Below, piece by piece: positions 16,445-35,748 of a stretch of 64,000 nucleotides of DNA; positions within the stretch are counted from its first letter, which is position 1, and each line of letters opens with the position of its first letter. The notes beneath the pieces are model-generated. The model was not told the DNA's origin. It saw only the letters and a list, made by a program, of their open reading frames with translations, and searched no databases. Position numbers and translations under genes: made by a program. Source of the DNA: Candidatus Latescibacterota bacterium (GTDB taxonomy: Bacteria > Latescibacterota > UBA2968 > GCA-2709665). The stretch is from NCBI GenBank assembly GCA_965248435.1, contig OZ252100.1:352001-416000 (forward strand), read 5' to 3'.

Positions 16445-16743
16445 GAATTCACCTCCGCGGGAGAGTGCCAGATGTGAACCGTTATAGGTTCCTGAGAGCT
16501 TTTTCATTTCGCCGGAGGGTCACCGGCCTGACAGAACAAAATACGTAACCGGACCTGGGCTGGCAAGGGGAAATCATTGCTTGAATTAGCAGGACTTATG
16601 TGTGGACGGCCGAATTAGCAGTGTAGCTGGGCCCGATCCCTCGATACACTGCGCGCTATTTCAAAGCCCAATCAGCGCCGCACTCGGGAATACGGGACTT
16701 TGGGATGGGGTAAGTCGGCGATTGAAAATGTGATCCACCAAAG

Positions 16744-16859
16744 GCCCTCACCCTGCCTCGCTGGCGCTCGGCATCCCTCTCCCATAAATGGGAGAGGGAA
16801 ACCATCTCGCTCTGACCTCCCCTCTCCTGCGTGCGGGAGAGGGGCCGGGGGTGAGGGCT
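16744..16859. repeat. Inverted doublet of CCCTCACCC/CCCTCTCCC...GGGAGAGGG palindromes with no gene between them
   Basis: gccctcaccc...ccctctcccataaatgggagaggg and ctcccctctcctgcgtgcgggagaggggccgggggtgagggc; the ends are inverted repeats. Confidence 0.8.
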
Positions 16860-18603
16860 ATCTATCCCAAGGAAACGCCAGAGTCGGCGTATTCGCATAT
16901 CTGTCCATCTGGATCACCAGGCGGCTGCCGCACCCGGGGGCCAGCGAAACGGTGAAGTGGGAGTCCCCTATCTGAGTCGTCTCTCCATCCGCTTCTGCGC
17001 TCTCGAATCTGTGTTCGCCGTAGGCCCCGCCCTGCACGACGACACGACGCGGCTCGACCGGGTTCAGATTCACGAGCTGAACGGTCACTGAATCCGCGCT
17101 CATCTTCTCCACAAGCGCAGCCACGTCTTCCGGGACGCCCGCCCGGCGCAGATCCGGGTCGAAATAACGCAGGCGGCAGTGCAGAAGCGAGCCGACCCGC
17201 CCGGTCGGGAGGCCGCCCAGCATCAACTGTGTCAGCCCCTGCGTCACGGCCGGGTTTATCCCGTTCATCACATCAGACAGTCGCGTGTCCGGCGTGCTTT
17301 CATCGTTACGCATCCGCTCCATCTTCTCTCTCACGCTGACGAGGTCCTGTTCCAGCGCCGTCACCGGAAAGTTCGGGTCGTTCCCTTCCAGATAGGCGAT
17401 CCACGGGTTTCCGGAGACGCGCTCCAGATCTTTTCGGTCCATCGACCAGGTGTAGACCTCCAATGCGCCGGGGTTGATCGGTTCGGCTTGAAACTCGTAC
17501 CATCCCTCGTCTCCATACATTCGGGGATACATCGTCCGACCGTCGATCTCCTTCGCGCCTTCGTTCATCCTGTCGATCACGCCCCGCCACACGTCCACGT
17601 AGCGCTGCTCCCCCGTCAACAGCAGCGCGTTCCCGAACCCGTAGTGCGCGCGGGCTTGGAACTGCGGACGGCTCGCCAAACGATCGCTGTCCGGCACCTT
17701 CACTGTGAACGCCCAGCCGTAGACCCCGCCGTACCACTTTCCGTCGCAGGCCCCGCCGATCGTGCCGTCCAGCCCGATGTTGGTCGGGATCAAGCCGTTA
17801 TTGGCCTCGGTCCGCTCCACCCAGGCGTCCGTGTAGTCGACCATCCAGTCCCGGTACTTCTCCTCGCCCGAGAACATGTAGGCGTTCAACGCCAGGACCG
17901 TCGTGCACAGGTTCAGCGGGTGGTCGCCCACCACGTCGTTGTAGTCCTTGAAATGCTCGAGCATCCCCTCGTAGCTGGCCTCCTGGTGGAGCAGCCGGAA
18001 GCCGGACACGTCGATCGGGTCCCCCGCCCAGTCCAGGGCCGTGGCCTTGCGCAGGAGGGGTCCGCGGCTCCCGTTGAACATGCTCTTGATGATTCGGTGT
18101 TCGGGGTCGAAATTATCCGCCTGCGGATCTTCGCCCATGTAGAAGCCGATGAAACGCCGGGTCCGCTCCTGGAAGCGCTCGTCGTAGGGGTCCGACAGGC
18201 CCTGCAGGAAAAAGGCGGCAAACCCCTCTCCATTGTGCATCCAGTCGAACATTACCGGAAACTCCTTGTAATACATCCCTTCCCGGGCCATGGGCACATC
18301 GACCGTCTTCGCCTCAGTGTACTGCCGCAGATGGCCATCCCAGCCCTGCTTGAACAGGTCCAGCACGATGTCATCTGCGCCCAGCGCGTGCAGCACGGTC
18401 CAGTTCAGCTGGTTCTCGGCCGCGTCGTCCGGGCCGTCGTCACCCCCCCAGCGCGGGACACACTGCAGATAACCCCGCTCGTCGAAGTATTTCGCGTAGA
18501 AGGCCTCGCACGCCTGTGCTTCGACCCTCAGCAGCTCGCGCTCCAGCAGGGCCCAGTGCGGCGCTGGCATCGGAGTGTTTATGGTAAGTGAAGCTGGTTT
18601 CAT
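16858..18603 (-). CDS. Conserved-looking hypothetical protein, possible (alpha/alpha) toroid enzyme with a C-terminal beta-sandwich
   Basis: ~580 aa with host-like codon bias, GAGG RBS, acidic WGGDDGPDDAAE motif, DWMHNGEG. Confidence 0.7.
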   Translation of the reverse strand: MKPASLTINTPMPAPHWALLERELLRVEAQACEAFYAKYFDERGYLQCVPRWGGDDGPDDAAENQLNWTVLHALGADDIVLDLFKQGWDGHLRQYTEAKTVDVPMAREGMYYKEFPVMFDWMHNGEGFAAFFLQGLSDPYDERFQERTRRFIGFYMGEDPQADNFDPEHRIIKSMFNGSRGPLLRKATALDWAGDPIDVSGFRLLHQEASYEGMLEHFKDYNDVVGDHPLNLCTTVLALNAYMFSGEEKYRDWMVDYTDAWVERTEANNGLIPTNIGLDGTIGGACDGKWYGGVYGWAFTVKVPDSDRLASRPQFQARAHYGFGNALLLTGEQRYVDVWRGVIDRMNEGAKEIDGRTMYPRMYGDEGWYEFQAEPINPGALEVYTWSMDRKDLERVSGNPWIAYLEGNDPNFPVTALEQDLVSVREKMERMRNDESTPDTRLSDVMNGINPAVTQGLTQLMLGGLPTGRVGSLLHCRLRYFDPDLRRAGVPEDVAALVEKMSADSVTVQLVNLNPVEPRRVVVQGGAYGEHRFESAEADGETTQIGDSHFTVSLAPGCGSRLVIQMDRYANTPTLAFPWDR

Positions 18604-33453: not shown

Positions 33454-33518
33454 CAATTCGCGGATCGCAACCTTCCGCTGTCCGCCCTCTTTTGATCGCC
33501 CTTACAAGAACGGATACC

Positions 33519-34388
33519 GTGGGCAATATCCATCTCAGATGGTGGGGATGCGGCGCGTTCGACATCCTCTTCGGTGACGTCAACATCGCGGTCGATCCCT
33601 ACCTGTTCGGTGAGAACCTCGAGAGCGTACAGCCGATCTACGACTACATCCTCATAAGCCACGAACACTTCGACCACTGCCATCCCAAATCGCTTCGGCA
33701 GCTCTGCCGGGGCGACCGCTTCAAGAAGCTGTTCGTCAGCATCGGCTGCCTCACCCCCAACGAACCGGTTGATGAGAAATACGGCGATGCCGCCTTTTCA
33801 CGCGACCTGCCGATCGACAAGCATGTCCCGTCTGACAAGATCCAGGTCGCCTATCCCAAATACCTGACCGACGACGCTCCCAGTTTCCCAGGGCCGTCCG
33901 AGTTCGATCTGGGCCCGATTCACGTAGAGGCCGTGGAGAGCGGCGAAAACGCCAGACCCGATCTCCCGACCTGCGGCTATTTGATCACACATACGCAAAA
34001 GCAGGTTTCATTCTATCATACGGGAGACCTCCAGAAAACCTTTCCGGCGCTGGAGAGTCTCAGGGGACGCGTGGACTTTCTGATCCACATGAAAACGGGC
34101 TTCAAAAAGGGTTCGAAGAAATACGAGGAGTTCACCGATCTGCTCGATCTCGTCCGACCCAGGTTCCTCATCCCCACCCATTACCGCACAGACCGGGTGT
34201 CGGACCCGGTCCCCGAAGGCCACTGGCCGTTGAATCTGACGGATGTGAACGCCTACATCGAGGACCTGCGGACACACGCTGCGGGAAAGACGGAGATTCT
34301 TCCCTTTACGGCCGGCGTGTTGTACGAGGTCGAAATGCCGGAAAAGAGGGTCGTATGGGATTGGGACTGGTACGAGTCGTGGACCTAA
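33519..34388 (+). CDS. MBL-fold metallo-hydrolase (UlaG-like)
   Basis: LRWWG, VDPYL, SHEHFDH, YHTGD, LIPTHY. Confidence 0.85.
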   Translation: MGNIHLRWWGCGAFDILFGDVNIAVDPYLFGENLESVQPIYDYILISHEHFDHCHPKSLRQLCRGDRFKKLFVSIGCLTPNEPVDEKYGDAAFSRDLPIDKHVPSDKIQVAYPKYLTDDAPSFPGPSEFDLGPIHVEAVESGENARPDLPTCGYLITHTQKQVSFYHTGDLQKTFPALESLRGRVDFLIHMKTGFKKGSKKYEEFTDLLDLVRPRFLIPTHYRTDRVSDPVPEGHWPLNLTDVNAYIEDLRTHAAGKTEILPFTAGVLYEVEMPEKRVVWDWDWYESWT

Positions 34389-34950
34389 CCCCCCTAGCCC
34401 CCCTTCCCTAAAGGGAAGGGGGGAACGGGTAAAGCTCCATTCGGTGCTCCAATTCTGGGAAGAACGGGATGCCTGAAAGACAGATCGTCACCGGGCAGAA
34501 GGTCGACAAAGAAAAAGGTCAACGCGCTAAAGACCTTCGACGTGAGATGACAGAAGAAGAGCGACTGCTTTGGGAACACCTTCGTGCCAATCGGCTAAAG
34601 GGCTTCCACTTCCGACGTCAACAAATCATCGATGGATTCATCGTCGACTTCTATTGCCATAAGGCGAGGCTGGTCGTGGAAGTCGATGGCCCGATTCACG
34701 AAGGACAAGCCGACTACGATAAGGAGAGGGATCGCGTCCTTTCCTTTCGCGGTTTGCACATCTTGCGAATCCAGAACGAGGACATTCGTGAGGAGCCGTC
34801 AAAAGTCGTATCGCTAATAGTTAAATTCCTGACCTAGTTCAGCTAGATGAACAGTTGTTATCTATTTCCAAACCTGATCAAGGAGGTCTCCCCTCCCCTT
34901 TAGGGGAGGGGCCGGGGGAGGGGTCGTGCCGACGCGTCGTGGACCTAACC
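34376..34950. mobile_element. Candidate mini mobile element: palindromic inverted ends around a DUF559 gene, bounded by a 15-bp direct repeat
   Basis: GTCGTGGACCTAACC at 34376-34390 and 34936-34950; inverted palindromic ends at 34382-34425 and 34887-34925. Confidence 0.65.
34469..34837 (+). CDS. DUF559 (Vsr-like PD-(D/E)xK) endonuclease domain protein
   Basis: RAK.LRREMT.EE..LW..LR......FRRQQII.GFIVDFYC...LVVEVDG.IH......D..RD..L...G..ILR..N. Confidence 0.92.
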   Translation: MPERQIVTGQKVDKEKGQRAKDLRREMTEEERLLWEHLRANRLKGFHFRRQQIIDGFIVDFYCHKARLVVEVDGPIHEGQADYDKERDRVLSFRGLHILRIQNEDIREEPSKVVSLIVKFLT

Positions 34951-34992
34951 TGGATCTCTACCCGCGCATGAGATCGAGCTAAGGGAAGAGAC

Positions 34993-35748
34993 ATGAAGCC
35001 CGAGAATGCTGATCGCGACGGCTATTCCAAAATCGCGGACCGCTACGATAGGTTTTACGAAGAGGATCCGAAGATTCTCGCCTTCTTCAAGTACCTGGTC
35101 GATCGGCATCAGATCCGGAGCGTGCTCGATTGCGCCTGCGGCACCGGACGGGAGCTTCTGATCTTTCACTCCCTTGGCTGTGACGTTACAGGTTCGGACA
35201 TCTCGCCATCCATGCTCGCGTTGGCCAGGAAACACCTCGCAGAGGCCGACGTGGGGGTCCCGCTTCATCAAACCGATTACCGGGAACTGCACGAAAAGTT
35301 CACCGAGTCGTTCGACGCCGTTCTCGTCTGGTCGGGTGCCATCTTTCACGTCTCAGATGATGCAGACGCCCTACAGGCCTTTCGCAGCATGCGGAAAGTA
35401 CTCTCACCCGACGGGATCCTCGTGATGGATCAAGGCATGACGGACAGGAGATTGCTCGAAAAAAAACGATTTGTCCTGAATCGATCAACTCCTGAGGCCT
35501 CTCGCGTCTATGTCATCGACTTCCTGAGTGACCGAGATTGGCGCTACAACACGTTGGATGTCACCCACGACGGTGGCAAACACAGGATGGAGGTCTGGAG
35601 CACGGATGCTCACTTTCTGCTCGAGGAAGATCAGAAGCGCCTTCTGGGTGAGGCGGGGTTTTCCAGAGTTGACTTCTACGGAACATATGACTTCGACCCG
35701 TACGACAGAGACTCCAGTTTGAGGCTGATCACCGTCGCACATAAATGA
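34993..35748 (+). CDS. Class I SAM-dependent methyltransferase (glycine/sarcosine N-methyltransferase-like)
   Basis: VLDCACGTG, GSDISPSML, FDAV, L.PDGILV. Confidence 0.88.
   Translation: MKPENADRDGYSKIADRYDRFYEEDPKILAFFKYLVDRHQIRSVLDCACGTGRELLIFHSLGCDVTGSDISPSMLALARKHLAEADVGVPLHQTDYRELHEKFTESFDAVLVWSGAIFHVSDDADALQAFRSMRKVLSPDGILVMDQGMTDRRLLEKKRFVLNRSTPEASRVYVIDFLSDRDWRYNTLDVTHDGGKHRMEVWSTDAHFLLEEDQKRLLGEAGFSRVDFYGTYDFDPYDRDSSLRLITVAHK

Follow-up and report, generated by a model that had tools for sequence, protein, structure and literature searches.

A DUF559 nuclease gene between inverted triplex-type repeats in a Latescibacterota genome: a candidate nuclease–repeat partnership

The 64,000-nucleotide stretch of DNA analysed here (the window, whose positions are used throughout) comes from the genome of Candidatus Latescibacterota bacterium (assembly GCA_965248435.1, contig OZ252100.1, positions 352,001 to 416,000 of the forward strand) and contains a small DUF559 gene that is enclosed by palindromic inverted ends and by two copies of a 15-bp sequence. 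This arrangement raises the question of how a Vsr-like PD-(D/E)xK nuclease is related to the repeats around it, and whether the locus is a nuclease-driven mini mobile element, as a first-pass annotation of the window had proposed. Comparison of the locus with the rest of its genome, with related genomes and with DUF559 loci of other phyla gives good support for a tie between the nuclease and its flanking palindromes. With a little better than even confidence, we read the locus as a "doublet with cargo", in which DUF559 would be the cognate structure- or sequence-specific nuclease of a family of triplex-type repeats and the whole would form a repeat-associated selfish module that is old and fixed at this site.

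A gene-bearing doublet within a dispersed repeat family

The 15-mer GTCGTGGACCTAACC is present in two exact copies on the + strand, at 34376-34390 and 34936-34950, and three matches with at most two mismatches were found in the window against 0.10 expected from 100 shuffles. The last codons and the TAA stop of an MBL-fold (Lactamase_B_3) gene (33492-34388, + strand) fall inside the left copy, and removal of the 560 bp from one copy to the other leaves this open reading frame (ORF) intact. The direct repeat can be stretched to 18/19 bases (ACGnGTCGTGGACCTAACC). Each end of the intervening block has its own hairpin with 100% complementary arms, at 34398-34409 and 34412-34423 on the left and at 34890-34899 and 34902-34911 on the right, and the left and right ends match each other as an inverted repeat with 25-nt arms at 88%. 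The sole credible gene between them is the DUF559 ORF at 34469-34837 (+ strand, 122 amino acids). In all these respects the first-pass annotation described the locus accurately.

A search of the whole source genome with both cassette ends as queries (blastn-short) revealed that the palindromic ends are not particular to this element and are instead standard units of a genome-wide family. The family comprises 54 units, 30 of type A with the layout GACCTAACCCCCC-nnn-CCCCCCTTCCC-TAAA-GGGAAGGGGGG and 24 of type B with the layout GACCCCTCCC...CCCCTCCCC-TAAA-GGGGAGGGG. Twenty couples of units lie no more than 700 bp apart, 18 of which are convergent with their GACC termini facing outward, and every one of these 18 adjacent couples combines an A with a B unit, none being homotypic. 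Seventeen of the 18 doublets are gene-less and measure 115-173 bp; the eighteenth is the cassette itself (34382-34925), a 544-bp A+B doublet with outward-facing GACC termini and with DUF559 as the only cargo among the doublets of this genome. Its A unit (34382-34424, + strand, outer terminus leftward) consists of the C-rich third segment, TAG and the hairpin, and its B unit (34887-34925, - strand) is inverted, reads CCCCTCCCC-TTTA-GGGGAGGGG-CCG-GGGGAGGGG-TC on the + strand and places its outer terminus ...GGGGTC at 34925. A 10-nt linker, GTGCCGACGC (34926-34935), precedes the right 15-mer, after which the sequence continues TGGATC... without the rest of an A unit. When the interiors of the gene-less doublets were compared by eye with the subterminal parts of the cassette, no convincing similarity was found, so that simple recent deletion from this cassette does not account for them.

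Three blocks make up each unit: one C-rich stem, its G-rich complement and a further block that repeats or mirrors this G-rich stem. The B unit, CCCCTCCCC-TTTA-GGGGAGGGG-CCG-GGGGAGGGG, follows a 9/4/9/3/9 architecture, and the A unit reads CCCCCCTTCCC-TTTA-GGGAAGGGGGG-CTA-GGGGGGTTAGG on the minus strand, its third block differing at three positions from a mirrored copy of the second, with TTA in place of AAG. A T opposite an A:T pair is tolerated in purine-motif triplexes. Folding prediction indicates that the hairpin part of the units folds as single-stranded DNA, and from their block layout both A and B units are predicted to be able to form a purine-motif triplex.

This build recalls the BoxC/PIT/TM repeats, which occur in large numbers in bacteria ranging from E. 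coli to cyanobacteria. These repeats fold into stable triplexes in vitro and are a mark of unstable regions of the genome. They have been known since the 1990s, and we know of no function or means of spread assigned to them. As in the units described here, the E. coli BoxC/PIT/TM_ECO intrastrand-triplex motifs come in two types, and the inverted couples of E. coli K-12 contain one of each type in 5/5 cases (Holder et al. 2015, PMC4666352), compared with 18/18 here. The likeness extends to the block architecture, with the B unit at 9/4/9/3(CCG)/9, and to a mostly intergenic distribution in tens of copies whose numbers differ strongly among near relatives. The stems are different, CCCCTCCCC and CCCCCCTTCCC here, and the published TM_ECO pattern (CCCTCNCCC N3-6 GGGNGAGGG) matched neither cassette end when run against the window; the kinship of the A and B units with TM_ECO is therefore one of architecture, and they are not copies of it. 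They also differ in bracketing a nuclease gene: Holder et al. (PMC4666352), in the most thorough study of the published motifs, report that neither a transposase nor an integrase, nor any other mobility function, had ever turned up close to them, and the paper names neither ycjD nor an endonuclease. In E. coli K-12, one TM_ECO lies ~170 bp downstream of the DUF559 gene ycjD, and a degenerate hairpin is found at the ycjD stop codon.

The sole match to the TM_ECO pattern in the window, at 16775-16798, lies within a second triplex-type doublet of another variant (16742-16868), which reads CCCTCACCC...CCCTCTCCC-ATAAAT-GGGAGAGGG and then CCCCTCTCC-TGCGTGC-GGGAGAGGGG-CCG-GGGGTGAGGG, with no gene between its units; it is the first hairpin of this doublet that fits the pattern. 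Elsewhere in the source genome (G000:C1:3811279-3815520), three A/B doublets or B halves are spaced at ~1.8-2.3 kb, as if each trailed one member of a tandem gene array. Short CG-containing motifs are frequent just outside the unit termini, with CGTATCTCG before A and TACGATCCACGAACGACG-like runs after B, and the repeated element may accordingly extend beyond the units, or CG motifs may be its preferred targets. Scans of 34200-35100 detected no sigma-70 promoter, and the only terminator-like sites lay inside the ORF at chance level; an Rfam scan returned nothing close to any gathering score.

DUF559 and hairpin repeats beyond the source genome

DUF559 is a very widespread family with a solved structure, and we know of no role or activity assigned to it. 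The protein encoded in the cassette, whose gene is intact, matches PF04480 (DUF559) with an E-value of 1.5e-37 and 128.2 bits (cut-off 20.6) over profile positions 3-108 of 109. It reaches 79 bits against the 218-bit cut-off of the YcjD equivalog family (NCBIfam PRK09767), which makes it a member of the DUF559 family and not a YcjD equivalog. Residues 26-121 align with the solved structure 3HRL (E 2.7e-20), and all 17 invariant columns of an alignment of 17 relatives are present in this protein. D60, E71, D73, G74 and H77, which are invariant or nearly so among the 17 sequences, are all retained, and by family resemblance the D60/E71/D73/H77-type residues probably make up the active site. The only other Pfam match, MTES_1575, fell under that family's cut-off, and the Pfam scan of the protein gave no GIY-YIG match. 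A role as a defence system was considered and rejected for want of evidence, PADLOC having returned only weak and partial matches (DpdF, 22.9 bits; HEAT_CxxC_PD-DEXK, 18.1 bits).

DUF559 has been placed in a single fold group, "VSR, DUF559, DUF2726", represented by structures 1cw0, 3hrl and 3r3p (Steczkiewicz et al. 2012, PMC3424549), and a YcjD profile finds Vsr at 1e-5 (PMC1189080). The protein described here shares this fold group with Vsr through its direct match to 3HRL. It differs from Vsr systems in that no Vsr-type cytosine methyltransferase is adjacent; the downstream neighbour (34993-35748, + strand) encodes a class I SAM methyltransferase that matches generic families of this class, including UbiE/COQ5. 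It differs from Vsr-like homing endonucleases in that its gene is not located in an intron or intein. The source genome (5.67 Mb) holds two DUF559 genes in total. The second, at G000:C1:2453538-2453843, encodes a protein 39% identical to the first; a short triplex-like motif, CCCCC-TTTGGAAAA-GGGGG-ATTGA-GGGGG, lies upstream of it, and neither an A nor a B unit is present there.

Flanking by structured ends recurs widely at other DUF559 loci, one of the expectations raised by the original description. A profile search of species-representative genomes found at least 595 DUF559 relatives, of which the best 80 were taken; these came from Cyanobacteria, Chloroflexota, Latescibacterota, Armatimonadota, Planctomycetota, Spirochaetota, Proteobacteria and others, with cyanobacterial proteins at 61-68% amino acid identity among the best matches. 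The 70 of these loci with enough flanking sequence carried perfect homopyrimidine/homopurine hairpins within 200 nt on both sides in 39 cases, on one side in 15 and on neither in 16. Control windows at least 600 nt away at the same loci scored in 8/1107 cases, which corresponds to an enrichment of ~100-fold beside DUF559. At 19 stand-alone DUF559 loci of relatives, a strict definition was applied, under which a hairpin had to lie no more than 200 nt from the gene and to have a perfect stem of 8 or more with a pyrimidine or purine content of 90% or above; such hairpins were present on both sides in eight, on one side in eight and on neither in three, compared with 12/152 control windows. Near-identical cassette copies within one genome were not seen: paralogous cassettes of a single genome have hairpins with different loops, and two cassettes of genome G021 (alignment A2) differ at many positions as well as in their loops. 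In G021 and G002, several divergent DUF559 genes are clustered within 7-15 kb. In genus g3, the hairpin unit forms long tandem arrays beside some DUF559 genes, with a period of ~159 bp at locus L016 and ~249 bp at L020.

DUF559 is patchily distributed, being present in 27/41 related genomes, and repeat numbers tend to be higher where it is present. A degenerate hairpin pattern gave 0-709 hits per genome, compared with 0-13 for the reversed control. Genomes with a full DUF559 (20) had a median of 62.5 hits and those lacking one (21) a median of 6, a difference for which the rank test (p ~1e-4) overstates the association because the genomes are kin. Within genus g6, counts of 59, 60, 314 and 709 were obtained with DUF559 and of 0-30 without it.

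Genus g6 also provides a well-resolved case of the presence and absence of such a block between species, bearing out this part of the original proposal, and its boundaries lie exactly at the outer termini of the units. A homologous cassette at locus L018 is present in G027 and G023, is reduced to an internal-deletion remnant in G030, and is absent with its flanks adjoining in at least 12/21 g6 genomes, the inserted block running exactly from GACC to GGTC. G035 is empty at this site though its flanks are nearer to those of G027 (96-97%) than are the flanks of G023 (91-94%). Gene-less doublets of G027 correspond to the two ends of the cassette abutted, and at 2/3 tested loci they are absent in four relatives each. 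The g6 site (L018; L056-L065) directly follows a stop codon and is a hot spot for insertion, with three different small insertions: besides the DUF559 cassette of G027 and G023, G040 has an insert of 335 bp and G044 one of 434 bp, both apparently with other small genes. In G023 (L168), one A unit is split in its hairpin loop by ~80 bp of other sequence with its outer parts kept. A second candidate cassette polymorphism, in genus g3 (locus L024), was dropped after only its left flank proved to be conserved.

Age of the insertion and origin of the direct repeat

At the locus in the window, a clean empty allele with a single 15-mer had been anticipated in relatives and was sought in the one same-genus genome compared, G001. 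Such an allele would read ...TGGACC followed by the ancestral ...GTnCCCCCGTGG... tail without a unit. In G001, ~40 bp separate the MBL and methyltransferase genes, and neither DUF559 nor a hairpin is present; the site reads GACCTAACCCCCCTGGCCCCTCC, 23 nt matching an A terminus of the source-genome type (21/23 by eye), so that a remnant was found in place of the empty allele. The A units of G001 itself begin GACCTACCCCCTAACCCCC, unlike this remnant. We read the G001 site as a probable deletion footprint, and an ancestral look-alike is also a plausible origin for it, the ancestral 3' end of the MBL gene, GACCGTnCCCCCGTGG, itself resembling an A terminus. The proposal of a mini mobile element therefore holds in part: the cassette is a discrete block that is absent between the same genes in G001, yet no clean empty allele was recovered there and the 15-bp duplication is not a trait of the family.

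Several observations bear on the age of the insertion. Distant MBL orthologs from other genera and families run on with ...TGGACnGTnCCCCCGTGGCGnGAGGGATAG for 8 more codons to ...WTVPPWREG* or continue as ...WTTPSWR..., whereas the protein of this genus ends ...YESWT* with a TAA stop from the A-unit terminus; this genus has therefore lost the last 8 MBL codons, and the unit now supplies the stop. Seawater metagenome contigs ~95% identical to the locus bridge both the junction from the MBL gene into the cassette and that from the cassette into the methyltransferase gene, which indicates that the insertion is fixed in this lineage. From its position at the end of the MBL gene, its supply of the stop and its retention in related strains, the insertion at this locus appears to be old.

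In one of these runs, X6, the best-supported subset of differences on one contig comprises 6 synonymous and 10 non-synonymous changes in the DUF559 ORF, including two stop codons as well as substitutions of the invariant F48 and D84, compared with 11 synonymous and 3 non-synonymous changes in the MBL gene, and the X6 ortholog is apparently decaying or a pseudogene. Together with the patchy distribution and the cyanobacterial best matches, this pseudogene-like ortholog suggests that the gene is not needed by the host. Circular or excised junctions, a further expectation of the first-pass annotation, were not encountered: among contigs of 4 runs across 33900-35500, a material that does not cover rare events, none joins 34390 to 34951 and no excision or circle junction was present. 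Apparent joints that skip ~460-468 nt with 24-40 letters between them stem from further gene-less A-B doublets in these genomes that align to the two ends of the cassette.

The direct repeat had been listed among the features of a candidate mobile element, and a reading of it as a hallmark of transposition did not survive comparison with the rest of the family. The left 15-mer is composed of 6 nt of flank (GTCGTG) and 9 nt, GACCTAACC, that belong to the A unit. That these last 9 nt also start the left end is correct; they are the regular outer terminus of the A unit, with ~30 copies in the genome, so that this portion of the 15-mer derives from the repeat family and not from the target. The longest flanking repeats of the gene-less doublets in the source genome are 4-7 nt (17/17), the flanking repeats of the 39 two-sided cassettes from other phyla follow the same distribution as a cross-locus null, and the g6 cassette has only AGGTC in common with its target and shows no target duplication. 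On the basis of these 17 doublets, 39 cassettes and the g6 cassette, target-site duplication was rejected as a family trait. Duplications were seen only at the present cassette (15 nt) and at one gene-less doublet of G027, where an imperfect flanking duplication of ~26-28 nt includes the neighbour's ribosome-binding site. Such occasional duplications of differing length fit host repair or template switching and not a fixed-stagger transposase. The best reading of the 15-bp repeat is that of a one-off by-product of junction healing and not the signature of a mechanism.

Competing explanations and implications

The arrangement at this locus is most readily compared with other systems in which a nuclease gene sits between repeats. 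In the REP/REPIN system with RAYT, reportedly worked out by Bertels and Rainey in 2011, one gene is said to be flanked by two inverted palindromic repeats that are also dispersed as inverted doublets and singlets, with few genes and many repeats. The parallel drawn in the first-pass annotation has gained weight, the source genome containing one flanked gene whose inverted repeats are also dispersed as 17 gene-less inverted doublets and as solo units, with repeat numbers tending to be higher in genomes with DUF559. In contrast to RAYT, the flanked gene encodes a PD-(D/E)xK (Vsr-like) DUF559 protein and not a Y1/HUH transposase, the repeats are homopurine/homopyrimidine triplex-type sequences of two kinds, and the gene-bearing cassette is itself present or absent between species. 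Insertion sequences and miniature inverted-repeat elements likewise combine a gene between terminal inverted repeats with many short gene-less derivatives, and the G030 remnant is a derivative by internal deletion; unlike them, the cassette has neither a transposase fold nor a regular target-site duplication, and its ends are self-folding units that also occur singly.

A close parallel in layout is provided by the GIY-YIG nuclease Ssn (Chenal et al. 2025, PMC11893778), whose genes are flanked by their cognate hairpin repeat on both sides in 42% of cases and on at least one side in 71%, values that compare with 56% and 77% for DUF559. The NTS/SRM repeat is dispersed in hundreds of copies, and its authors likened the layout to an insertion sequence. 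Ssn was found by experiment to cut single-stranded DNA at the NTS repeat and to affect transformation; cleavage has been shown for Ssn and is predicted for DUF559. The two also differ in the enzyme (GIY-YIG as opposed to PD-(D/E)xK) and in the repeat, which appears unrelated in sequence and build. That paper makes no mention of DUF559 or Vsr.

For the doublet-with-cargo reading that we prefer, the following sequence of events can be envisaged. DUF559 would recognise the folded A and B units and nick or break the DNA there. To our knowledge, hydrolytic PD-(D/E)xK enzymes have no DNA-joining or strand-transfer activity of their own. Since such an enzyme cannot join DNA, spread would proceed through host repair of the nicks or breaks that it makes. 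Host replication and repair might heal these nicks by copying, so that doublets could spread with or without the gene, and copying of this kind would leave irregular junctions and no fixed target duplication. The 15-bp repeat could then have arisen, for example, by microhomology at GACCTAACC combined with re-copying of the target during healing.

A number of points weigh against this reading. The repair-mediated copying step is purely conjectural, and the proposed link between DUF559 and the repeats is drawn from sequence comparison. Only one flanked DUF559 gene occurs among the 18 doublets, the second having no more than its short upstream motif, and 16/70 DUF559 loci in other genomes are without such a hairpin nearby. 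The copy-number comparison uses related, non-independent genomes and counts overlapping pattern matches repeatedly, and two genomes, G004 (pattern count 74) and G007 (62), possess many units and no detectable DUF559. At the locus itself, strains at ~95% identity keep the cassette in place and nothing shows movement, and the G001 site is more like a footprint than an unoccupied target.

Three other explanations account for parts of the same evidence. DUF559 might be a host-serving nuclease that clears replication-blocking triplexes or hairpins, or that cuts incoming single-stranded DNA at the motif, with the flanking units acting as regulatory or operator sites and the repeats spreading by other means. 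The experimentally characterised SsnA/NTS pair, with the same gene-between-repeats layout (PMC11893778), the conservation of catalytic residues across phyla and the report that TM-bearing loci are more rearranged among E. coli strains (PMC4666352) are all in its favour. We nevertheless regard it as unlikely in view of the patchy distribution of the gene, its presence or absence between species, the apparent pseudogene in a near relative and the insertion of gene and both units as a block at unrelated sites; the overall pattern looks selfish and not like a maintained host function, and scans of the cassette gave no consensus for a sigma-70-type promoter or for a terminator. Somewhat less probable still is a homing-type cycle, in which a free-standing DUF559 homing endonuclease would cut gene-less A-B doublets, after which gene conversion, with the units as arms of homology, would copy its gene into the cut doublets; the doublets themselves would spread otherwise. 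The gene-less doublets of G027 do look like the unoccupied form of the cassette, and the decayed X6 gene and the G030 internal-deletion remnant would fit a cycle of invasion, fixation and decay; the VSR/DUF559 group, moreover, includes a group I intron homing endonuclease as well as Vsr (PMC3424549). Such a cycle is difficult to reconcile with an occupancy of 1/18 doublets, with cassettes that are divergent within one genome and not recent copies, and with homology arms of only ~40 nt, and it leaves the higher unit numbers in genomes with the gene unexplained.

A purely passive association is the least probable of these explanations and, in our judgement, very improbable. Repeats would here gather around small horizontally acquired genes or gene ends without any functional tie to DUF559, and the 15-mer would be a plain local duplication. 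The large number of units without any gene, the genomes that have units and no DUF559, and the g6 hot spot with its three different small insertions are compatible with such gathering, yet DUF559 is the only cargo among the 18 doublets of the source genome, the ~100-fold enrichment extends across 70 loci of many phyla, and the units flank the gene in a fixed inverted A/B arrangement.

Extending the doublet-with-cargo reading to the whole family, we tentatively propose, at just under even confidence, that the enzyme so far missing beside the BoxC/PIT/TM repeats is a DUF559 protein, YcjD in the case of E. coli, which would read their folded A/B forms and drive their gain, loss and local instability. 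A search of published titles and abstract openings found no link of DUF559 to dispersed repeats. The idea is directly testable in E. coli K-12, which has ycjD and 23 TM copies. If true, the DUF559-repeat pair would join REP/RAYT and NTS/Ssn as the third nuclease-repeat partnership to have evolved independently. It would be the first to rely on an enzyme of the PD-(D/E)xK class, and its nuclease might be the first bacterial protein known to read an intrastrand DNA triplex. It would add an enzyme class to the small set of repeat-associated nucleases and, as Ssn did, could offer a structure-specific DNA nuclease of possible practical use. Such a partnership would explain two orphans together, the BoxC/PIT/TM repeats and the DUF559 family.

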